Origin: Armatimonadota bacterium
Lineage (GTDB): Bacteria > Armatimonadota > Fimbriimonadia > Fimbriimonadales > GBS-DC
DNA: 43,271 nucleotides
Assembly (NCBI GenBank): GCA_037444405.1
Contig: JBBIML010000022.1
Location: 1 to 43,271 of the forward strand
Reading direction: 5' to 3'
Shown here in pieces: positions 4,430 to 30,602 of the stretch (position 1 is the first letter of the stretch; each line of letters begins with the position of its first letter). Below the pieces are notes generated by a model. It did no database searches. It was not told the DNA's origin and worked only from the letters and a program-made list of their open reading frames with translations. The translations under genes were made by a program, and so were the position numbers.

Positions 4430-5992
4430 TTAATGCAGCTTGCCCACTGCTGACTCGACGGCGCGGCGCAGCTCGCCAGAGAGCATCAGCTCACGCACCG
4501 CCTGCACATCGGGCGCCAGAATCCTGTCCGCTTCCAGCGGCGGCACGACCGTGCGAATCGTCTGCAGAGCCGCTTTGACGCCAACGCCCGGCTCCAGCGG
4601 CTTGTGGAACTCCAGCGCCTGCGCCGCGTTCACCAGCTCAATCGCTATCACCCAGCGGGCGTTTTCCAGAATCATGCGCGCCTGACGGGCTGCCGTCACG
4701 CCCATCGACACATGGTCTTCCTGGTTCGCGCTGGTGGGGATCGAATCGACGGAGGCGGGATGCGCCAGCACCTTGTTCTCCGACACGAGGCTGGCAGCGG
4801 TATACTGGGAGAGCATCAGCCCCGAATGCAGACCGCTCTGGCGAGCTAAGAAGGCGGGTAGCCCCGACAGGTCAGGGTCAAGCATATACTCCACACGCCG
4901 CTCGCTGATGTTCGCCAGCTCCGCAATCGCGATTTTGGCGTAATCCATCGCCAGCGCGACGGGCTGACCGTGAAAGTTGCCCGCGGAGATGACCTCATCG
5001 CTGTCGGGGAACACGAGCGGGTTATCGGTGACACTGTTCATCTCGCGTTCGATCACCTCGCGCACATGGGCGAGCGCGTCGCGCGAGGCGCCATGCACCT
5101 GGGGAATACAGCGCAGGGAGTAGGCGTCCTGCACTTTCTCGCAGAACTCGTGCGATTTGTGGATGGCACTGTTGACGCACAGCTGGCGGATATTCGCGCA
5201 CACCTGCGCGGCGCCCGGATGGGGTCGCACCTGCGCGACTTTTGAATCGAAAGGTCGCAGGCTGCCCTTGAGTGCTTCGAGGCTCATCGCGCCCGCAATA
5301 TCGGCGAGCGTGCAGAGTTGCAGGGCGTCATAGACCAGCAGCGCGCCGACGGCGGTCATCGCCTGCGTGCCGTTGATGAGCGCCAGCCCCTCTTTGGCTT
5401 CCAGCGTGATCGGCGTTAGACCCGCAGCGCGCAGGGCGTCGCCTCCGTTCAGAATGCGACCCTCATATTCAGCCTCGCCCTCGCCAATGAGGGGCAGGCA
5501 CATGTGGGCGAGCGGGGCGAGGTCGCCGCTGGCGCCGACCGAACCCTGTGAGGGCACTATCGGATGCACGCGCCGATTGAGCATCTCCAGCAGCAGCTCG
5601 ATCACCTGCTCGCGCACGCCGCTGTAGCCGAGCGCGAGGCTCTGTGCACGGAGCAGCATCATCGCCCGCACCACCTCCGTCGGGAACGGCTCGCCCACGC
5701 CTATCGCGTGTGACAGCAGCAGGTTGCGCTGCAGCGTGCGGGTCTGATTGGGGCTGATGCGCTGGTTCGCCAGCTTGCCAAGCCCGGTGGTGACGCCGTA
5801 CACCGTGCGGTTTTCCGAGAGGATATGCTCCACATAGCGGCGGCTGGCACGCACGCGCTCGCGCGCCTCATCCGCTAATCGCACGGGCGCGTACTCGCGT
5901 GCCACACGCACCACATCCTCCACGCTGAGGGGACGCCCAGCGATGACCTGCGTCTCCAGCTGCGCCGCCTCCTCGCCACGCACAGTCGCCAT
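4430..5992 (-). CDS. hutH: Histidine ammonia-lyase
   Basis: VYGVTTGLG, MIO-forming GSVGASGDLAPL, KEGLALINGTQ, QDAYSLRC, GNFHGQP, ANQEDHVSMG. Start at 5992 or 5998. Confidence 0.93.
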   Translation of the reverse strand: MATVRGEEAAQLETQVIAGRPLSVEDVVRVAREYAPVRLADEARERVRASRRYVEHILSENRTVYGVTTGLGKLANQRISPNQTRTLQRNLLLSHAIGVGEPFPTEVVRAMMLLRAQSLALGYSGVREQVIELLLEMLNRRVHPIVPSQGSVGASGDLAPLAHMCLPLIGEGEAEYEGRILNGGDALRAAGLTPITLEAKEGLALINGTQAMTAVGALLVYDALQLCTLADIAGAMSLEALKGSLRPFDSKVAQVRPHPGAAQVCANIRQLCVNSAIHKSHEFCEKVQDAYSLRCIPQVHGASRDALAHVREVIEREMNSVTDNPLVFPDSDEVISAGNFHGQPVALAMDYAKIAIAELANISERRVEYMLDPDLSGLPAFLARQSGLHSGLMLSQYTAASLVSENKVLAHPASVDSIPTSANQEDHVSMGVTAARQARMILENARWVIAIELVNAAQALEFHKPLEPGVGVKAALQTIRTVVPPLEADRILAPDVQAVRELMLSGELRRAVESAVGKLH

Positions 5993-21441: not shown

Positions 21442-21630
21442 CTACTCACCGCTGCGCTGGCGATAGCGGCGCGCCTGCTCAGGATCGATGCGCCGCATGC
21501 GCTTCAGCAGCTCGTTCGTTTCGGGTCGACGCACATCGGGGCGTGAGGGACCATCCCCATCGCTCCCCGGTTTGGTCAGCGGCTCCTGTGGAATCGGGCG
21601 CCGCAATCGTTCTTCCGCTTGCCAGATCAT
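21442..21630 (-). CDS. ubact: Ubiquitin-like protein modifier UBact
   Basis: 62 aa with a disordered N-terminus. ELLKRMRRIDP..ARRYRQRSGE ends in the R[ST]G[EQ] signature. Located between dop and prcB. Confidence 0.92.
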   Translation of the reverse strand: MIWQAEERLRRPIPQEPLTKPGSDGDGPSRPDVRRPETNELLKRMRRIDPEQARRYRQRSGE

Positions 21631-23129
21631 GATGATTGAACCTCCTTGACCATCCTGACGAAGGTCGTGATATCGGGAGCCGTCGTCAGACGGCGGCTCA
21701 GCTCGCGCAGGTCTATCTCAATCAATCGGCTCAGATCGAGCCGTGCGCTCTGATTGCCATCGCGCAACAGGATCCGCTCCCAGTTGAGTGTTTCAATCTG
21801 CTCCGCGAATCGCTGGATGCACAGCCCGCGAATGGCGGCGCGGGTGTCTAGCGGCGGCTGATGCACCGCCTGCTCAATCGCCTCCGTGCTCACCAGCGTG
21901 AGCATCTGACCCTGCTCCACCAGCGCGTAATAGAGACCCTGTTCGGGGTCCACATTATGATACTCCAGATCGAGGGCAAAAAGTGCCGGGTCGTCCCACG
22001 AAAGCCCCTCCGATTCAACATAGAGGGTCAACAGTTGCCGCTTGGCAACCCAGTCGATACGGTCGGCGAGCCGTTCAGGGTCCGTCTCCAGAAGGTCCAG
22101 CACGGTTTGCCATTCGCGCAGCAGCCAGTCGGTCTCGGCGTCGCGCCCCGCGAATCGCTCGCTCGCCGCCTGCCAGTAGGCACGCTGGATATCAATCGCG
22201 CTCATGGCGCCCATATCGGTCTCCACCAGCCATTTGAGGTCGGTGTCGCGCGAGAGGCGTTGCGCCTCGCGCACAGGGTTCGGAATGGAGAGCGGGGTGC
22301 GCCAGCCCAATTCGGTGAGGTCCAGCACGAGTGCGGTTGTGCCCACCTTGAGCGCGGTGGCATACTCGCTCATGTTCGCGTCGCCGCAGATGACATGCAG
22401 GCGCCGGTAGCGGCGCATCGGCGCGTGTGGCTCGTCCCGCGTGTTGAAGATGGGGCGCCGATAGAGCGTCTCCACATTCATAATGTCCATATAGAAGTCG
22501 GCGCGCTGCGAGAGCTGGAACGGCACGCGCGGGTTCGGCTCCGCCTCGACGCCCACCTTGCCCGCGCCCGCATAGAGCATGCGCGTCACCAGAAACGGGA
22601 GCATGTTCGCCACCAGCACCTCGAACGGCACCTCGCGCGTCGTTGAGTAGCTCTCGTGGCAGCCGTAGCTGCTGCCATGATGGTCGCTGTTGTTCTTGTA
22701 GAGGGTCAGGCGGTTGCCTGTCTGGCGTTCGTAGGCGCGGGCGCATGCAAGCACGATGCGCTCGCCTGCCTTATCGTGCGCGATTAAATCCAGCAGGCGT
22801 CGGCATTCGGGGGTGGCGTATTCGGGGTGGGCGTGGTCATTATAGAGCCGTGCGCCGTTGCCCAGCGCGTGGTCGGAGCGCACCTCACGCTCCGAAAGCG
22901 GCACGGGATGCTCGCGTTCAATCTGCGCATCGTGAGGGTCCACTTCCAGATGCTCCACGCGGAAGCCGCGCATATCGCGGCGAGGGTCTTCCAGGCGATA
23001 GTCCCAGCTTCGCACGGCGGGCAGGGGGCAACTGCGCACCACGCCAACCGCTTCCATCAGCTGGTCTGCGACCCCTCGACCCTCCACATATAAGCCGTAC
23101 TCGGTCTCAATACCCGTCAGGCGTTGCAC
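21627..23129 (-). CDS. dop: Depupylase/deamidase Dop family protein
   Basis: GIETEYG, NGARLYNDHAHPEYATPEC, YKNNSD..GSSYGCHE, RRPIFNTRDEPHA, RRLHVICGDAN. GTG start 6 nt after TATAAT. Confidence 0.92.
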   Translation of the reverse strand: MQRLTGIETEYGLYVEGRGVADQLMEAVGVVRSCPLPAVRSWDYRLEDPRRDMRGFRVEHLEVDPHDAQIEREHPVPLSEREVRSDHALGNGARLYNDHAHPEYATPECRRLLDLIAHDKAGERIVLACARAYERQTGNRLTLYKNNSDHHGSSYGCHESYSTTREVPFEVLVANMLPFLVTRMLYAGAGKVGVEAEPNPRVPFQLSQRADFYMDIMNVETLYRRPIFNTRDEPHAPMRRYRRLHVICGDANMSEYATALKVGTTALVLDLTELGWRTPLSIPNPVREAQRLSRDTDLKWLVETDMGAMSAIDIQRAYWQAASERFAGRDAETDWLLREWQTVLDLLETDPERLADRIDWVAKRQLLTLYVESEGLSWDDPALFALDLEYHNVDPEQGLYYALVEQGQMLTLVSTEAIEQAVHQPPLDTRAAIRGLCIQRFAEQIETLNWERILLRDGNQSARLDLSRLIEIDLRELSRRLTTAPDITTFVRMVKEVQSS

Positions 23130-23175
23130 GGGGTTATTATACCCCACCTGCGGGTATACTTCAGCGTCGAAATCG

Positions 23176-25086
23176 ATGCTGGGTCGTGTCTGGCGGTTGC
23201 TGATCGGTCAGCCGTTATCGACGCGCCGCGCGCGTCATGAGCGGCTCGCTGTGTGGCTTGCACTGCCTGTGTTCGCCTCGGATGCCATCTCCTCATCGGC
23301 TTACGCGACGGAGGAGATGGTGATGGTGCTGTGGGCGACGGGTGAGGCGGGATTGAAGCTGGCGTTCCCCATCTCGCTGGCAATCGTGGCGCTGCTGTTT
23401 ATCGTGGTGTTCTCCTATCGTCAGACAGTTCATGCCTATCCGCAGGGCGGTGGCGCGTTCAATGTGGCGCGTGAGAATCTGGGCGAGTTCTGGGGTCTGC
23501 TGGCGGCGGCGGCGCTGCTGGTGGGCTATGTGCTGACCGTCGCGGTGAGCATCGCGGCGGGCGTGAACGCGATTGTGTCGGCAGTGCCTGCACTGTTGCC
23601 CTATCGCGTGCCGCTCAATGTGCTGTTTATCGCCTTCATGACGCTGGTGAACCTGCGCGGCGCGCGTGAATCGGGCTATGTGTTCGCCCCGCCGACCTAC
23701 GGCTTCGTGCTGGTGTTCGGCGTGCTGATCCTGCTCGGTCTCTGGCGCGGCTTCACGGGCGATTTACAGCCCGCGCCCTACTTTGGCGCGACCACAGGGC
23801 TGAGCCTGATGGTGATTGCGCTCGCGTTCGCGCGTGGTTGCGCCGCGCTCACGGGCGTGGAAGCCATCTCCAACGGCGTGCAGGCGTTCAAACCGCCCGA
23901 ATCGCGCAATGCGGCGACCACCCTGCTGCTGATGGCGTTCATTCTGTCGGGGTTGGTGCTGGGCATCACCTACCTTGCCAGCCACTATCAGGTGGTGCCG
24001 CGCGTGGAGAACGGTCAGATCGTGGAGACGCTCAACTCGCGACTGGCGCGCACCATCCTGGAGGGCACGCCGTTCGAGTGGTTCTACTATCTGGTGCAGA
24101 TTGCCACGATGGCGATCCTGGTGCTTGCCGCCAACACCGCCTACGCCGACTTCCCGCGCCTGAGTTCGATTCTGGCGAACGCTCGCTATGCCCCGCGCCA
24201 GTTAGCCAATCTGGGCGACCGACTGGTGTTCAATAACGGTATCCTGCTGCTGGGTCTCGTGTCCGCTCTGCTGATTATCTACTTTCGGGGCGACACACAC
24301 TCGCTGATTCCGCTCTATGCGGTGGGTGTGTTCATCTCGTTCACGCTTTCGCAGGCGGGGATGGCGCGTCGTTTCCTGCGCGTGCGTCCACCACGCTGGC
24401 AACTGGGCATGCTCATCAACGGCTTCGGCGCAACCGTCACCTGCATGGTGTTCCTTACTCAGCTAATAGTCAACTTCCGCTATGGCGCGTGGATGACCGT
24501 CGTCGCGATTGGCACGCTCATCTACCTGATGTACAGGGTGCATGAGCATTACATGCAGTTGCGGGTTCAGCTGCGCCCCGATGAGCAGGCGCCTGCATCG
24601 GGGGTGCGCCGCCATCGCGTGCTGGTGCTGGTGCCCAGCGTGCATCGGGGCGTGCTGCAGGCGCTCGATTACGCCCGCCAGATCGCCCCAACCGACCAGA
24701 TCGAAGCCCTGCATGTGAATGTGGACCCGCGCCCGCCCGCCATCTACCGCCGCGTGCTGCGCCGCACCAAAGATGAAGCCACCCTCCAGCTCGTTACCCC
24801 CGCCGCCGAAAAAATGCAGCAGGAGTGGCACCGCCATGTGCCCGACATCCCCCTCAAAATCATCGATTCGGAACACCGCTCGCTCGTTGAACCCATCGAG
24901 GACTATATCGACGAGCTGATCAAACGCGAGCAACTGGATTTGCTGACCGTGATTATCCCGGAGTTCTATCCGAAGCGGTGGTGGCACCACTTACTGCACA
25001 ATCAGTCGGCGTGGATGCTGCGCCTTGCCCTGATGCGCAAGCCGAAGGTGGTCGTCACCACCGTGCGCTACTTCCTGGAGCGATAA
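23176..25086 (+). CDS. APC family permease (KimA/YdaO-like, probable K+ transporter)
   Basis: LPVFASDAISSSAYATEE, SYRQTVHAYPQGGG, NLRGARES, ALTGVEAISNGV, FPRL, PLYAVGVF, cytoplasmic tail WWHHLLHNQS. Confidence 0.9.
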   Translation: MLGRVWRLLIGQPLSTRRARHERLAVWLALPVFASDAISSSAYATEEMVMVLWATGEAGLKLAFPISLAIVALLFIVVFSYRQTVHAYPQGGGAFNVARENLGEFWGLLAAAALLVGYVLTVAVSIAAGVNAIVSAVPALLPYRVPLNVLFIAFMTLVNLRGARESGYVFAPPTYGFVLVFGVLILLGLWRGFTGDLQPAPYFGATTGLSLMVIALAFARGCAALTGVEAISNGVQAFKPPESRNAATTLLLMAFILSGLVLGITYLASHYQVVPRVENGQIVETLNSRLARTILEGTPFEWFYYLVQIATMAILVLAANTAYADFPRLSSILANARYAPRQLANLGDRLVFNNGILLLGLVSALLIIYFRGDTHSLIPLYAVGVFISFTLSQAGMARRFLRVRPPRWQLGMLINGFGATVTCMVFLTQLIVNFRYGAWMTVVAIGTLIYLMYRVHEHYMQLRVQLRPDEQAPASGVRRHRVLVLVPSVHRGVLQALDYARQIAPTDQIEALHVNVDPRPPAIYRRVLRRTKDEATLQLVTPAAEKMQQEWHRHVPDIPLKIIDSEHRSLVEPIEDYIDELIKREQLDLLTVIIPEFYPKRWWHHLLHNQSAWMLRLALMRKPKVVVTTVRYFLER

Positions 25087-25092
25087 CCGCCG

Positions 25093-25518
25093 ATGGCACG
25101 CACAATTCTGATGGCATATCGGGGCACGGAGGAGGATCGGCGGGTTCTGCGCTGGCTCTGCCGCCTGACCAGGCAGACCCGCGCCAACCTGCGGCTGGTC
25201 TATGTGCTGACCGTGCCGTTCAGCGAGCAGGTCGACGCGCCCGAACCGACAGGCTTACAGCAGGCGGAGCAGCTGCTGCTGGAGGCGGAGCGCATCGCCG
25301 AGCGCGAGGGCGTGATTGCCGCCGCCGATATTGTGCAGGCGCGCGACGCGGGCAGCGGGCTGGTCTCCGAAGCGGAGGAGCTGGATGTCGACCTGCTGGT
25401 GCTGACCGACCGTCGCCATTTGCTGCCGCTGGAGAACCCGCTCGGCTACGGCACGGTCGCCTATGTGCTGCGCCACGCCCCCTGCCCCGTCTGGGTCTGC
25501 TACGAACCCATCTCATAG
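25093..25518 (+). CDS. Universal stress protein (Usp domain)
   Basis: ILMAYRG...DLLVL...GTVAYVLRHAPCPVWV. Confidence 0.9.
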   Translation: MARTILMAYRGTEEDRRVLRWLCRLTRQTRANLRLVYVLTVPFSEQVDAPEPTGLQQAEQLLLEAERIAEREGVIAAADIVQARDAGSGLVSEAEELDVDLLVLTDRRHLLPLENPLGYGTVAYVLRHAPCPVWVCYEPIS

Positions 25519-25549
25519 CCAGGAGCAGGGTAAACTGTATGGGGAGCCT

Positions 25550-26617
25550 ATGGACGCGCACGACTATGCGAATCGGGTCTACCTGTCCGCTATAGAGGCG
25601 GCGAAGTTTCTGGGCGTCTCCGTGCGCACCGTTCACCGTCTCGTAATAGAAGGACGCCTGCCAGCGTTCGTCGCTGCCAGCGGGCAAAAACGCTTCCGAT
25701 TGCGCGACCTCGAAACACTCAAACAGAACCTCGCCTGGCTCACCAGTCTCCAGCAGCAGCCGTCCCTGTCAGAAAGCACCACGCTGACCCTCAACGGCAC
25801 AACCCAGCGAATCTATGTCAAAAATGCGCAATCGATGAAAGAGATTGAGGACAACAGCATCCATCTGGTCATCACTTCACCCCCCTATTTCAGCACGAAA
25901 ATGTACGCCCGCGAGCCTATCGAGGGCGATCTCGGTAATATCCATTCGCTGGAGGAGTGGCTCGAACAGATTGCCCTGGTCTGGCAGGAGGTCTATCGCG
26001 TGCTTCAGCCAGGGCGCAAAGCCTTCATCAATATTATGAATCTCCCCATCCGAATGGCAGATGGCAGTTTTCGCACGCTGAACCTGATGGGCAAAACCAT
26101 CGACCTGTGCGAGCGAATCGGCTTCATTTTCAAGCGCGATATTGTGTGGCACAAAACGAACTCTGTACGGGCACACTTCGGAACTTATCCCTACCCTGGA
26201 GGCATCCTCATCAATCATATGCATGAGTTCATTCTGGAGTTTGAGAAACCCGAACCTAAAGGCTTCAAGAAATATGCGCATCTCACCGAACGGCAGCGTG
26301 AGGAATCGAAACTTGACAGGGAGTTCTGGATTATGCTCAAAAAGAGCGATGTGTGGCTCATAAAGCCTGAAGGCAGTGGCGATCAGCGCAATCATGTGGC
26401 GCCATTCCCCTATGAGTTACCCTACAGGCTCATTAAAGCTTACAGTTTTGTGGGCGAAACGGTGCTGGACCCGTTCATGGGTTCAGGCACAACACTGCTG
26501 GCATGCATCGATCTGCGTCGGAACGGCATCGGGTACGAGATCAACCCGGAGATCGCGGCAGAAGCCGTTAATCGCCTGCGCAACCGTCAAATCTCTCTGT
26601 TAGAAGATATAGAGTAA
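25550..26617 (+). CDS. Beta-class N4-cytosine/N6-adenine DNA methyltransferase with N-terminal excisionase-type HTH
   Basis: EAAKFLGVSVRTVHRLVIEGRLPA HTH. TSPPY (motif IV) precedes VLDPFMGSGTT (motif I). HVAPFP. Confidence 0.92.
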   Translation: MDAHDYANRVYLSAIEAAKFLGVSVRTVHRLVIEGRLPAFVAASGQKRFRLRDLETLKQNLAWLTSLQQQPSLSESTTLTLNGTTQRIYVKNAQSMKEIEDNSIHLVITSPPYFSTKMYAREPIEGDLGNIHSLEEWLEQIALVWQEVYRVLQPGRKAFINIMNLPIRMADGSFRTLNLMGKTIDLCERIGFIFKRDIVWHKTNSVRAHFGTYPYPGGILINHMHEFILEFEKPEPKGFKKYAHLTERQREESKLDREFWIMLKKSDVWLIKPEGSGDQRNHVAPFPYELPYRLIKAYSFVGETVLDPFMGSGTTLLACIDLRRNGIGYEINPEIAAEAVNRLRNRQISLLEDIE

Positions 26618-26639
26618 AACTTTTTTATGAGGTGAAAGA

Positions 26640-27398
26640 ATGGCACAACGATGGGAAGATATAGAACACAAGATTCGCTTGATGAACACTTTGCTTGATG
26701 AGATTGAACTGAGCGTGGAGCAGGTGGTCAGCAAATATCCCGATAGTGAATTTTTGCTGCGATTGCTCGGATTGGTTGACTCGTGGACAGAAGACGATCG
26801 GAAAATTCTTGAAGAAAAGATTACAGGCACACGTCACCACCGCAATCATCGCGACGCGCGCACCTATGCTGCCAATGTGGTATTGGGATGGGTTATGCAA
26901 GATGTGGTGATACAGCAGTTGCGCAAATCAGGTTATGAGTGTGAGCCTGCAGGTGCAGATGCCCAGCGGCAACTTCTGCGTGGGCATCAAATCTCGGAAG
27001 AAGCCGACCTGCGCCTTCAAACACCCGCAGGCGAAATCTGGTGGCTGGATGTGCTAACAGACTATCCCACCCAAAAAGGTGCTTTATCCTACTGGAAGCA
27101 AACAAACAGATGCGATCTGCGCGACCAGAAATTCCAGCGCTTAGCTGAGAAGATTAAAGGAGGAGACCGGGCAGGCTTAATCGGTATCTCTACAGGCACT
27201 AAAAGTTATTTTGGATTAGAAATCACGGAAGAGATTGTGCAGGAGCTGCGGTCTCCCCCACCACGCAACAGGCGCATTTACCGCGTCGAGACGCACTGGC
27301 CATTCGGCGGTAAGCCCGCTATCACGCTTAATTTGCGACTTTTGCAAGTGCCCTTTTACCCTTTCAAGAACTTCCCTGCTGGGCTACCTTTCTTCACA
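26640..27398 (+). CDS. Putative restriction endonuclease (PD-(D/E)XK-like) with no stop codon, reading in frame into purC
   Basis: RBS GAGGTG, directly downstream of the methyltransferase, more AT-rich than the flanks. Pattern GWVMQD...EEADLRL...WLDVLTDY. The ORF continues to 28337. Confidence 0.5.
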
Positions 27399-28337
27399 AT
27401 GGTCAAAGAAACCCAACTTCCTCTGCCGCTTTATACGCGGGGCAAGGTGCGCGACACTTACGCGCTGGACGATGCCCTGCTGATGATTACCACCGACCGC
27501 CTCTCGGCGTTCGATGTGGTGCTGCCGACGCCCATCCCTGACAAGGGGCGCGTTCTGAACGGTCTCAGCGCGTTCTGGTTCCATCGCTTCGAACCGTGGA
27601 TGCCCCATCACCTGATCAGCACCGACTGGAGCGCGATTGCCGACGCGCTTCAGCGAGTGGGCGTGCCCGATGTGGACGCCTATCGTCCCCTGCTGATAGG
27701 GCGCACGATGCTGGTGCGACGGGCGAAGCCGTTCCCTGTGGAGTGCGTCGTGCGCGGCTACCTCGCTGGCTCGCTCTGGAAAGAGTATCTGCAGGCAGGC
27801 GGCGCCCAGCGCGAGCAACCCGTCACCCTGCACGGTATCCACCTGCCCGCAGGACTGCGCGAATCGGAACGCCTGCCCGAACCCATCTTCACACCCGCCA
27901 CCAAAGCCCACAGCGGACACGACGAAAATATTTCCTTTGAGCAAATGGCGCATATCGTCGGCGCAGACTACGCCCGCCAGCTGCGCGAGTTGAGCCTGCG
28001 CCTCTACCACGAGGCTGCCGAATACGCGCTCGCGCGCGGCATCATTATCGCCGACACCAAGTTCGAGTTCGGTCTGGATGACGGCGGGCGTATTCTGCTG
28101 ATTGACGAGGTGCTGACGCCCGATTCCTCACGCTTCTGGGATGCCGCGCTCTATCAGCCCGGTCGCGCCCAGCCCAGTTATGATAAGCAGTTCGTGCGCG
28201 ACTACCTCGAATCGATCGGTTGGAACAAGCAACCGCCCGCGCCGCCTCTGCCGCCCGACATCGTGCAGAAAACCGCCGACAAGTATCGCGAAGCCTATCG
28301 CCGCCTGACAGGCGAGCCGCTGCCACCTGCCGAATAA
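27399..28337 (+). CDS. purC: SAICAR synthase
   Basis: RGKVRDTY, TDRLSAFD, PVECVVRGYLAGS, FTPATKA..GHDENI, IADTKFEFG, DEVLTPDSSRFW, DKQFVRD. Confidence 0.96.
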   Translation: MVKETQLPLPLYTRGKVRDTYALDDALLMITTDRLSAFDVVLPTPIPDKGRVLNGLSAFWFHRFEPWMPHHLISTDWSAIADALQRVGVPDVDAYRPLLIGRTMLVRRAKPFPVECVVRGYLAGSLWKEYLQAGGAQREQPVTLHGIHLPAGLRESERLPEPIFTPATKAHSGHDENISFEQMAHIVGADYARQLRELSLRLYHEAAEYALARGIIIADTKFEFGLDDGGRILLIDEVLTPDSSRFWDAALYQPGRAQPSYDKQFVRDYLESIGWNKQPPAPPLPPDIVQKTADKYREAYRRLTGEPLPPAE

Positions 28338-28365
28338 GCAGGGGCGCATGGCGATGCGCCCCTAC
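28338..28365. repeat. GTAG-type REP-like palindrome between convergent genes, possible bidirectional terminator
   Basis: AGGGGCGCAT-GGCG-ATGCGCCCCTAC. The GH116 stop TAG is the TAG of its GTAG. Confidence 0.8.
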
Positions 28366-30602
28366 CCCACCAGCGACCAAGCGGACATGCAGCGTGCGTA
28401 GTAGCTGCCGCATTCTGGCTCGTTGAAGGGGTTGCGTCGCGCGCCATCATGGCGGGCGCGCACCGCCTCCACCACCGCCTGCGCCTCTGCCTCCAGCCCG
28501 TAATCCAGCAGCAGCCGCGCAAACAGATACTCCAGCCCTGTCCAGCACTCCGCCCAGTAGGGAAACGGCACTGCGGGACGCCCCCCACGCGGATAGGAGC
28601 AGATCAGCACGCCCGACTCGTCGCCCAGCGCGTAGGTGCGCATGTGGTTGTAATGCCGATGGAATCCGCGACGGAAGTTGAAGCGATAGATGGAACGCAG
28701 CGCCTGAACGATATGATCCCGCCGCAGCAGGTCGCCCAGCCCGACCCGGTTCGCCTTGTATTGACCCACCAGCTGATCGATCAGGCAGCCGTCGCCCACC
28801 TGATAGTGCTGGCAGAGCGGGTCATCGGGCTGGAGCGCGGTCGTCATCGGATGGGGCGGCTCCTGCGGTCGCTGAAACCGCTGAACATAATAGTCGCCGT
28901 TGAACAGGTTCGCGTCCATCCACTGGCTACCCTGCTCAAAGAGTCGCCGGCATTCGCGGGCGAAGGCGGCATCGCCGATAACGAGCGCCATCTGCTCCAT
29001 CGCCCGCAACGCTGTTAGATACCATGTGCCACACGAGGGATTGGGTCCGAAAAACTCCACATCGTAGGTGTTGTGCTGGGCGCCCTCCATCACGCCGTCC
29101 CGATTGGCGTCCCACCCGCCGGGCACCCAGGCGAAGGCGAGCAGTTGCTTCAATGTCGGATAGACCTGTCGGAGCCACTTTTCATCGCCTTCGCGCCGAT
29201 ACTGCTGATAGGCGCGCACAATCAGCCCCATCTGTCCATCGGCGGCGGCGCGGTTGAAGCGTGCTGTGCCCGGCGGCAGGTCGAGCCGAAAGCGGTGCGC
29301 CCCGTCCGCTGTCAGCCCGTAGCGCAGATGGCTCTCCAGCATCGAACGGTGAAGGTCCGGGAAGAGCGCGCACAGCGCCTCCTCGTAGTTCCACACATGC
29401 GTGCAGGAGCCATAACAGCAGCCCGTCGTCGCATTACAGCCCTCGAAGGCGCAAAAAGTGCCATCCTCCAGCCGGAAGCAGGTCGGGCTGCGCAACACGC
29501 TCAGGCAGTTGAGCGCCGATTCGGCGAAGGCGGGGTGCCGGGCGCGCTTAATGACCGAGCGCACGAACGCCAGCGTTCGCTGCTCCAGCTCCGACAGGCG
29601 CGGGATGACCGCCTGCGCCACCGTTAGCGCGTCGCGGAACCGTAGGGCATAATGGTTGCGCACGATGGGGTCGTCGCGCTCGCTGCCCTGCCACCAGCCC
29701 AGCTCGCGCAGGTCGCGGTACGGGAAGTGCCAGCAGAGCAGGAACCGCGCCGTCTGCTGGCTCTTTGCGGGCAGGTCGAACGGCACGGAGAGCGAGCTGT
29801 TCCAGCCATGCTCGTCGCTGGGCGGGCACGGCTCATCGGGCGCCGCATCGGCAATCGCCCCGTCAGTCAGCAGGGTATCGATCAGTCCGAGCAGTTCGCG
29901 GTTCCATGCGCGGTCGCGGAACGCCCATCGGCGCGCCGCCACCGCCGGGCGTTCGCTCAGCAGGGCGAGCGTGCCCCAGCGCGGCGACCGCTGCTCCGGC
30001 TCCTTGCAGAAAAGAAGCCCCTGCCAGCCTGCCACCTGCGCGAACTCTGTACGATTGCCGCGCAGGTCGCTCACGACCCCATCACTGCCGATGAAGCTGG
30101 TCAGCACAAAAGTCAGCGACACCGCGAGCGGCGCAGAACCCCGATTGGATACCTGCACGCTAAGCATGCCAAACGGCAGGCTGGAATCGTCCGTCGCTTC
30201 GGGGATGAGCGGGTTGAAGGCGGTGAGGGCGACCTCGATGGGCAGGCTCGGATCACGCAGGTGGACGCGCCCGAACGGGTACGCCGATTCGAAACTCACT
30301 GCCCGCATGCGCGGGATACCGCCCAGCGCCTGCGGCACGCCGTGATCGGCGTCCAGATGGAGCCGTGTGATGCCCTCCAGCACGCGCAGATAGGTCTGCC
30401 CGCGCGGCGTGCGAACCCACAGCAGCAGATGGGCGTAAGGCGGTCGCCAGCCCCGATGCGGACGGCTCATCAACTGCCAGTCGGTGAGTGCACCATCGCC
30501 TGTGAGCGCGAAGCAGCCCGTGCCGATGCCGCCCACTGGCATCGCTATCGCCCGCAGGCGCGAGCGCCCATATCGCGCCACCACTGGAAAATCGCGCGCC
30601 AT
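28362..30602 (-). CDS. GH116 family glycoside hydrolase (non-lysosomal glucosylceramidase-like)
   Basis: MPVGGIGTG, CYGSCTHVWNY, AADGQMG, QHNTYDVEF, GCLIDQLVGQ, ECWTGLEY, NPFNEPECGSYYAR. Confidence 0.92.
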   Translation of the reverse strand: MARDFPVVARYGRSRLRAIAMPVGGIGTGCFALTGDGALTDWQLMSRPHRGWRPPYAHLLLWVRTPRGQTYLRVLEGITRLHLDADHGVPQALGGIPRMRAVSFESAYPFGRVHLRDPSLPIEVALTAFNPLIPEATDDSSLPFGMLSVQVSNRGSAPLAVSLTFVLTSFIGSDGVVSDLRGNRTEFAQVAGWQGLLFCKEPEQRSPRWGTLALLSERPAVAARRWAFRDRAWNRELLGLIDTLLTDGAIADAAPDEPCPPSDEHGWNSSLSVPFDLPAKSQQTARFLLCWHFPYRDLRELGWWQGSERDDPIVRNHYALRFRDALTVAQAVIPRLSELEQRTLAFVRSVIKRARHPAFAESALNCLSVLRSPTCFRLEDGTFCAFEGCNATTGCCYGSCTHVWNYEEALCALFPDLHRSMLESHLRYGLTADGAHRFRLDLPPGTARFNRAAADGQMGLIVRAYQQYRREGDEKWLRQVYPTLKQLLAFAWVPGGWDANRDGVMEGAQHNTYDVEFFGPNPSCGTWYLTALRAMEQMALVIGDAAFARECRRLFEQGSQWMDANLFNGDYYVQRFQRPQEPPHPMTTALQPDDPLCQHYQVGDGCLIDQLVGQYKANRVGLGDLLRRDHIVQALRSIYRFNFRRGFHRHYNHMRTYALGDESGVLICSYPRGGRPAVPFPYWAECWTGLEYLFARLLLDYGLEAEAQAVVEAVRARHDGARRNPFNEPECGSYYARCMSAWSLVG

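Follow-up and report, generated by a model that had tools for sequence, protein, structure and literature searches.

The window considered here is the whole stretch of 43,271 nucleotides of contig JBBIML010000022.1 (assembly GCA_037444405.1, from an Armatimonadota bacterium whose genome we refer to as G000), and our subject is a single open reading frame (ORF) within it that runs from a nuclease-like sequence straight into a complete PurC, directly behind a gene for a DNA methyltransferase. From sequence comparisons, we consider it probable that the locus is a Type II restriction-modification (R-M) cassette whose nuclease has become translationally fused to the only PurC of the genome by way of a small deletion. 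The features that make up the core of the locus are the following.

25550..26617, plus strand: the methyltransferase (M) gene, encoding an HTH_17 domain and a beta-class N6_N4 DNA methyltransferase; its ORF is open from 25463, and the ATG at 25550 is the likely start.
26629..26635, plus strand: the Shine-Dalgarno-like stretch GAGGTGA of the nuclease (R) start, 4 nt ahead of the start codon at 26640.
26640..27398, plus strand: the R part, a putative PD-(D/E)xK nuclease-like domain (amino acids 1-253) with no stop codon of its own, assigned from an AF2 model and from homologues.
27387..27407, plus strand: the fusion junction, ...GLPF-FT / M-V-K-ETQ..., without a stop and without a Shine-Dalgarno-like stretch.
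27399..28337, plus strand: the purC part, SAICAR synthetase (amino acids 254-565 plus the stop), assigned by Pfam and NCBIfam; the only copy in the genome.

The 565-codon nuclease-PurC ORF is real. In the ORF listing it occupies 26640..28337 on the plus strand, opens with an ATG, and comprises 253 nuclease-like residues followed by the entire PurC, as an initial annotation made from the letters of the window had described. That annotation had also called the first 253 codons AT-richer, which the base composition bears out: their GC content is 0.502 (0.522 at third codon positions, GC3) versus 0.630 (GC3 0.757) in the purC part and 0.625 in the genome, and the low-GC stretch as a whole reaches from just past the stop codon of the upstream gene usp (25518) up to the purC ATG. 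The DNA methyltransferase gene that it had placed ahead of the ORF is recognized by Pfam through matches to HTH_17 and N6_N4_Mtase, and the complete PurC that it had read from ATG 27399 onward is equally well founded. This ATG (27399-27401) codes for M254, and the sequence behind it matches the NCBIfam purC equivalog NF010568 over amino acids 255-559 (profile positions 6-294 of 297, 401.8 bits against a cut-off of 251) and Pfam SAICAR_synt (PF01259) over amino acids 265-532 (profile positions 2-230 of 233, 254.8 bits against a cut-off of 20). Among solved structures, yeast SAICAR synthase comes closest to the purC part (1.7e-80), with an alignment that begins at residue 8 counted from M254.

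At its upstream end, the ORF begins behind GAGGTGA with an N-terminus that agrees with the N-termini of its relatives. At the junction, the GLPF that is conserved in the nuclease family is followed by F and T and then by the M-V-K-ETQLP of PurC. The GLPF codons share their frame with the purC ATG, and no nearby stop is present in either of the other two frames; judged from these letters, no simple sequencing error would therefore give back a normal gene. The initial annotation had further pointed to a -10-like box, TACCTT, ahead of the purC ATG. The letters are indeed there, at 27385-27390 and 8 nt before ATG 27399, and agree with TATAAT at 3 of 6 letters, but a role as a promoter found no support in a consensus scan, which returned no promoter-like site on the plus strand between 24900 and 28600, a weak test given that the promoter type of this organism is unknown. 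A scan for a terminator between the nuclease and purC parts, likewise a weak test, found none.

Since the genome was assembled from a metagenome, in 40 contigs (98.9% complete), the fusion might be thought an artefact of assembly or sequencing. The sequencing data that bear on this are contigs, all from a single study, and not the reads behind them, so that rare variants are possible, and for one run, X3, no piece across 27399 is listed; both points count against our reading of the junction. On the other side, run X1, from which the assembly may stem, has a single 8470-nt Logan contig that covers 25300-28500 with 0 differences, and run X2, from another sample of the same study, yields a 255-nt contig (depth 9) spanning 27294-27548, again with 0 differences. 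Two assemblies from two samples are thus identical letter for letter over the junction, and the interval 27350-27400, which the initial annotation had singled out for a check, is bridged with neither a stop nor an indel. The in-frame position of the GLPF codons, with no stop in the other frames that would give a nuclease of normal length, also speaks against an artefact, as does the remnant of the same cassette that lies beside purC in a sister species (G002). An artefact is extremely improbable on this evidence. A further run, X4, holds another allele, with the same deletion joint as that of G002.

The nuclease half was compared with sequence libraries, and no match for amino acids 1-253 was found in Pfam (E up to 1), NCBIfam, PADLOC, PHROGs, or the sequences of the PDB. 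A search of 5.8 billion proteins retrieved 40 relatives, all of them unnamed or labeled 'hypothetical' and 39 of the 40 without a Pfam domain; the full-length ones are 55-74% identical to the window copy. Their lengths agree with a merger of two genes in the window, in that 37 of the 40 measure 250-269 amino acids and the relatives all end where the window copy continues into PurC. A profile search of 1.84 billion representatives returned 294 proteins at E<=0.001 (129 of them at E<=1e-10), mostly of 210-250 amino acids, and in the nuclease region of the 44 distant relatives scanned, no Pfam match passed the cut-off. Two distant relatives carry something extra: P0149 has N-terminal topoisomerase-type zinc ribbons over the Pfam cut-off, in three stretches, and P0165 has an N-terminal topoisomerase-type zinc-ribbon match below cut-off (28.7 bits against 32).

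All relatives found are free-standing. At each of the 17 loci where the 3' end was inspected, a stop follows the conserved GLPF within 1-13 codons; among the 5.8 billion proteins, the only longer form of the nuclease is the 565-residue protein of the window itself; and no purC was found near a nuclease relative in any of 51 loci. As far as these protein and locus searches reach, the nuclease-PurC fusion is unique so far and constitutes a new domain architecture made from known kinds of parts. Its being a singleton also counts against our reading.

An AlphaFold (AF2) model of amino acids 1-253, built from an alignment of 38 sequences, reached a pLDDT of 89.3 and a pTM of 0.88. Foldseek ranked Hjc resolvases best (E 1.4e-4, target TM 0.63-0.67), with SfiI, BglI, DpnI, and SPARDA nucleases lower, and VIA-align gave Z 9.4 for the Hjc entry 1gef (rmsd 2.6, 114 aligned) and Z 8.7 for the RecU-like 1y1o. 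Restriction enzymes followed at Z 5-6.7 (BglI 6.7, MspI 6.7, SfiI 6.2, NhoI 6.1, SwaI 6.1, and also BsaWI and DpnI), values that, at Z 6-7, can mean a common arrangement only, according to the tool's own warning. The alpha-beta-beta-beta-alpha-beta nuclease core is present by the AF2 model, Foldseek, and VIA-align alike, and the nuclease fold that the initial annotation had assumed for these residues is thereby borne out. In the model, the PD-(D/E)xK core lies at approximately amino acids 80-253, behind a helical N-terminal domain of approximately 75 residues. Leads to PDDEXK_14 and Hjc from the Protein Atlas, at 0.90, were set aside as weak; the other clusters there are unnamed.

The residues most likely to matter for catalysis fall in one segment of this core.

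26901..27131, plus strand: the presumed catalytic core, D88, D123 (the 'PD' position), D137, R161, and K164, named from conservation, with a presumptive placement on the fold.

Eight residues (R71, W84, D88, D107, R110, D123, R161, and K164) are invariant in 52 sequences down to approximately 20% identity. Position 137 is D or E throughout these sequences, with E in the distant relatives, and D123 belongs to a literal P-D or A-D. No Lys stands two places past residue 137, where (D/E)xK would have it, which counts against our reading; K164 or R161 might stand in for it, as candidates only.

The methyltransferase is the second half of the case for an R-M cassette. The M gene matches Pfam N6_N4_Mtase (PF01555) at 1.2e-43 (150.1 bits against a cut-off of 26.7, profile positions 1-219 of 221), HTH_17 at 2.6e-10, and the PADLOC model MTase_II, one of its Type II methyltransferase models, at 2.8e-59. 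Its SPPY motif (25877-25888) precedes FMGSGTT (26474-26494), the motif order of the beta class. Relatives align from amino acid 28 onward, and its GC content is 0.532. By these comparisons, the methyltransferase of the window is a full-length, intact gene. After 2zie, the named solved structures most closely related to it are those of cytosine-N4 methyltransferases, and we take the SPPY motif to point to N4-cytosine methylation. HTH-bearing methyltransferases can exert control of the SsoII and Ecl18kI type.

In the window, the M and R genes are 22 nt apart, and such closeness recurs among the relatives. We fetched 51 loci with nuclease relatives (3 from genomes, 48 from metagenomes), of which 28 hold a full-length copy. 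A PF01555-type methyltransferase gene abuts the nuclease in all 26 of these that have at least 482 nt of upstream sequence, at a gap of -21 to +23 nt; in the other 2, the upstream sequence extends no further than 172 nt. The association of the nuclease with methyltransferases, on which the initial annotation had leaned, is therefore found at every informative locus. The partners are of two kinds. Ten of the 26 resemble the methyltransferase of the window (78-84% identical), and the other 16 are shorter and permuted, with the AdoMet motif before SPPY. The permuted pairing joins a nuclease of 59-64% identity with a 291-residue methyltransferase (loci L022, L013, L024, L026-L035, and L037-L039); at L022:2620-4286, the methyltransferase gene overlaps at its start with the stop of an upstream ORF of 445 codons and at its stop with the start of the nuclease.

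With the ranking of the structural matches in view, the N-terminal part could be a nuclease of another sort, a junction resolvase or repair enzyme that merely travels with methyltransferases. The Hjc and RecU resolvases are the best structural matches (Z 8.3-9.4), above all restriction enzymes, and the sequence matches none of the described restriction-enzyme families in Pfam, NCBIfam, PDB, or PADLOC; the first of these observations is a direct point against a restriction enzyme. Restriction enzymes are, however, notoriously diverse in sequence. The methyltransferase adjacency is strict (26/26) and involves two different methyltransferase architectures, several deletion remnants have lost parts of both genes together, as expected for a toxic nuclease, and the extra N-terminal helical domain of approximately 75 residues is absent from Hjc. 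A resolvase or repair enzyme is very unlikely on this balance, and the evidence supports a two-gene Type II R-M cassette of an HTH methyltransferase and a PD-(D/E)xK nuclease, with the role of the nuclease suggested by its fold and context. The nuclease sequences form a sizeable family, and with the core group of close relatives being strictly methyltransferase-linked, it is a candidate for a new Type II restriction enzyme family. The same nuclease family also pairs with two methyltransferases of reversed motif order.

The G000 genome avoids several palindromes to an extreme degree, namely ACGT (observed/expected 0.03), GGCC (0.03), and CTAG (0.05) among the short ones and GTGCAC (0.12), ACGCGT (0.15), GAGCTC (0.16), and CTCGAG (0.19) among those of 6 nt. 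The sole ACGT of the 43-kb window lies inside the nuclease part (window positions 26831 and 27298 were flagged in connection with palindrome avoidance). We considered this avoidance as a signature of the present cassette and set it aside, as an assignment to it was not possible.

Whether the nuclease half still works is a separate matter, as relatives of the cassette often decay. Five of the 28 full-length copies are split over two frames, loci L014 and L044 have internal deletions in the cassette, and deletion remnants are present at L045-L061 and in the genomes G002 and G011. At L045-L061 (about 17 loci), only the last 35-50 codons of the nuclease are left (approximately 100 at L048), and at 8 of these loci the HTH codons of the methyltransferase (approximately 28-64) stand 4-7 nt ahead of the last approximately 50 nuclease codons. 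The one that was translated, L058, has the HTH and the nuclease end joined in frame in an ORF of approximately 90 codons, and the DNA downstream of it is the same as in the intact alleles L016-L021. Two such remnants serve as examples.

L058:3387-3650 and L046:2420-2683, strand not stated: example remnants on metagenome contigs.

The remnant in G011 stands where G015 has the full pair. G015, a family-level relative, is recorded as an uncultured Fimbriimonadales bacterium.

Such decay weighs against a functioning fusion, and the nuclease half could be in the process of being lost. It might even be dead or dying already, so that the locus would amount to an orphan methyltransferase and a purC with a long inert N-terminal leader. 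Apart from the frequency of decay in the family, a bulky C-terminal partner might hinder the formation of dimers. The window copy itself bears few marks of this, as it keeps 107 of the 111 columns with at least 90% conservation among 36 relatives, with conservative changes at the other 4, and all 8 superfamily-invariant residues, and it has no frameshift. Its cognate methyltransferase is intact, and tails of up to 13 residues are tolerated in the family. The model of the full-length fusion (pTM 0.53) has two folded domains with a pLDDT below 50 over amino acids 250-266, which predicts two bodies on a flexible link of 17 residues and leaves the nuclease domain unchanged. We consider a dead nuclease rather doubtful, and a working restriction enzyme with a PurC tail is plausible.

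The PurC half appears to have come through the fusion unharmed. The gene is single-copy in the genome, and the four other purine genes tested (purB, purE, purH, and purF) score above their cut-offs and have no stops. Compared with G002, purC has 95.8% amino acid identity and a dN/dS of 0.176, and when changes were polarized with the outgroups G001 and G012, the window lineage had 5 nonsynonymous and 10 synonymous changes and G002 had 2 and 6, with 13 ambiguous. Neither dN/dS nor the polarized changes gave a sign of relaxed constraint on purC, and from this selection and the intact pathway we infer that PurC remains functional. That PurC tolerates an N-terminal partner is indicated by analogy, because it is the C-terminal part in 119 of the 119 listed long PurC proteins (that of the window aside), mostly behind PF01594; in all, PurC matches at E<=1e-20 were found in at least 872 proteins of at least 547 amino acids. 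The combination of PF01594 (AI-2E transporter family) with PurC, at approximately 650-670 amino acids, is widespread (among P0188-P0306), and one long PurC protein, P0254, also has adenylosuccinate lyase domains.

Ribosomes starting at ATG 26640, behind GAGGTGA, would cross the junction and produce a 565-residue nuclease-PurC with two independently folding domains. The nuclease part contains no stop, so each ribosome that translates it continues into PurC. A different arrangement is that PurC is made mainly as a free protein from the internal ATG 27399, with the read-through product as a minor or unstable by-product. ATG 27399 stands where PurC starts, the number of residues ahead of ETQLP being 3 in the window and 5-8 in the relatives G001, G002, G004, and G012. 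Most genes here lack a Shine-Dalgarno stretch, in that GGAG or GAGG occurs at -18 to -4 in 61 of 189 near-unambiguous ATG-start ORFs (32%), compared with 18 of 189 in the control (10%), and SD-independent initiation seems common in this organism. The RNA around ATG 27399 is weakly folded as well (-7.7 kcal/mol, z +0.89). With most genes lacking a Shine-Dalgarno stretch and the RNA at 27399 weakly folded, internal, SD-independent initiation of free PurC is quite possible, and all of this weighs against a product that is chiefly fused.

There are also points on the other side, beginning with the missing stop. A Shine-Dalgarno-like stretch stands ahead of purC in three of four relatives (G001, G002, and G004), whereas the window has none, and the consensus scan placed no promoter-like site before 27399. 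If an internal start had sufficed, a join out of frame would have been equally good, and an in-frame join has a chance of 1 in 3, which is weak evidence. That PurC is produced mainly in free form is thus a possibility we hold to be somewhat unlikely, and we continue with translation from the nuclease start as the preferred reading.

How the fusion arose can be approached through related genomes. Two further features are needed for this comparison, along with the counterparts of one of them in relatives.

25093..25518, plus strand: usp, the host gene that borders the islet on its left, encoding a universal stress protein (Pfam Usp 1.3e-19).
26103..26112, plus strand: a 10-nt word within the M gene, the left end of the deletion in G002 and X4, with further copies in the purC leaders of G001 and G002.
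L010 (G002:C3) ~5195-5240 and L006 (G001) ~1460-1490, purC leader: the 10-nt word in relatives.

Among 41 related genomes searched for the nuclease, 3 of them of the same genus, it was found only in G000 itself, in G015 (full), and in G011 (remnant). In none of the 3 same-genus genomes was the nuclease found; the low-GC islet was not found in 2 of them, and the third has a deletion remnant. In the sister species G002, kup and usp are followed by a methyltransferase gene that breaks off at window position 26113, and 34 nt lie between that point and purC. A blastn alignment of G002 with the window ends at 26113 and picks up again at 27407. The 34 nt carry a Shine-Dalgarno-like stretch as well as the start of purC, located 8 codons ahead of ETQLP, and they resemble the purC leader of the cassette-free G001. 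The 10-nt word at 26103-26112 has no second exact copy in the window, and the G002 deletion looks like one between short direct repeats.

On this basis, the most economical sequence of events can be proposed. The common ancestor of G000 and G002 would have had the methyltransferase gene, a nuclease gene with its stop, a purC leader, and purC. In G002, recombination between the two copies of the 10-nt word would then have deleted the nuclease gene entirely and the methyltransferase gene over its 3' half. In G000, one small deletion would have cost the nuclease its final codons and its stop, and purC its leader (ribosome-binding site included) along with a few codons of its N-terminus. With the leader gone, an in-frame join would have been a sure route to PurC. 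It is a point against this history that it draws on two relatives. The initial annotation had supposed that an R-M islet landed in front of purC and that the nuclease lost its stop. The islet ahead of purC, the nuclease without a stop, and the in-frame fusion all stand; as to the stop, the intact purC leader that G002 keeps suggests loss by a later small deletion and not at the original landing.

When the islet was searched for target duplications at its flanks and for terminal inverted repeats, nothing turned up beyond short repeats of low identity, of the kind that chance would give. We also considered the islet as a rearrangement breakpoint, with usp and purC lying on different contigs in G001, and found this uninformative, as gene order around purC and the neighbor to its right differs generally between genomes this far apart. 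The 88% identity to G002 over 23121-26113 was looked at as the mark of an imported cassette segment and likewise dropped, the divergence lying mainly in kup (87.7% amino acid identity) and usp being 97.2% identical (GC 0.678). The kup-like transporter gene (window 23176-25086) has 87.7% amino acid identity between G000 and G002 and 86.9% to G003. Its neighbors (a 506-amino-acid gene at 21627-23147, usp, purC, and a 746-amino-acid gene) are 95.7-97.8% identical to those of G002, a pattern that suggests replacement of the kup allele by recombination in one lineage.

As a rule, restriction genes are easily lost, and in this cassette family frameshifts are seen, as are several independent deletions that took away portions of both genes. 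The fusion could in principle change that. It would work as a metabolic addiction if the only PurC is translated via the start of the nuclease ORF, with selection for prototrophy shielding the nuclease and the cassette from decay, a proposition that we regard as unlikely. Were it true, a nonsense mutation, frameshift, or deletion that silences the nuclease would also abolish purine synthesis, and purC would have been placed under the control of the HTH methyltransferase. With PurC dependent on entry through the nuclease, the host would be barred from the commonest routes of silencing, an entanglement of element and host. The R-M element would then be stabilizing itself by capturing the translation of a host gene, which is undescribed within the literature we searched. 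If the fusion instead proves to be accidental and neutral, it still offers a clean, dated example of neighboring genes merged by a small deletion.

Compared with the archaeal Hjc resolvases (1gef and 2wcw), the core of the nuclease (amino acids 79-253) finds its best structural match, at Z 9.4 and rmsd 2.6-3.3. Unlike them, the N-terminal part has no match to the Pfam Hjc family (PF01870) and only 6-14% identity, and it is part of a bacterial, methyltransferase-linked protein with an additional N-terminal helical domain. The natural PurC fusions of PF01594 with PF01259 (approximately 650-670 amino acids) share with the window protein a C-terminal PurC behind a large unrelated domain, but that architecture recurs in many records and the nuclease-PurC occurs once.

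Other parallels come from R-M systems. The portions of Furuta, Abe and Kobayashi (2010; PMC2853133) cited here report a Type II R-M system inserted into an operon-like structure, repeats lying across the starts or stops of translation, and, as a by-product of such insertion, gene fusion that involves methyltransferase genes. The cassette of the window resembles the insertions in those portions in sitting tightly between host genes, and in its relatives stop and start codons overlap. It differs from them in that no flanking target duplication was detected around the islet and in that the fusion joins a nuclease, and not a methyltransferase gene, to a metabolic enzyme. No precedent for a nuclease-PurC fusion, or for any fusion of a restriction enzyme with a housekeeping gene, was found in the open-access literature searched. 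Type IIG/IIC enzymes, which the same paper names (PMC2853133), combine restriction and modification domains in one chain. A restriction nuclease domain inside a longer multi-domain polypeptide is common to both, but in Type IIG/IIC the partner is the cognate methyltransferase and is functionally integrated, whereas in the window the partner is a biosynthetic enzyme and the methyltransferase is separate.

A further close counterpart is the orthodox Type II system that couples a PD-(D/E)xK nuclease with a beta-class N4/N6 HTH methyltransferase. The locus shares with it two adjacent genes in the same orientation, a methyltransferase that combines PF01555 with an HTH domain, and a 253-residue partner with a predicted PD-(D/E)xK core, together with low GC content, a patchy distribution, and frequent decay by deletions that hit both genes. 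It departs from that pattern in a nuclease that matches no described restriction-enzyme family in the libraries searched and whose Lys lies off the canonical (D/E)xK place, and above all in that this nuclease is stopless and carries PurC at its C-terminus.

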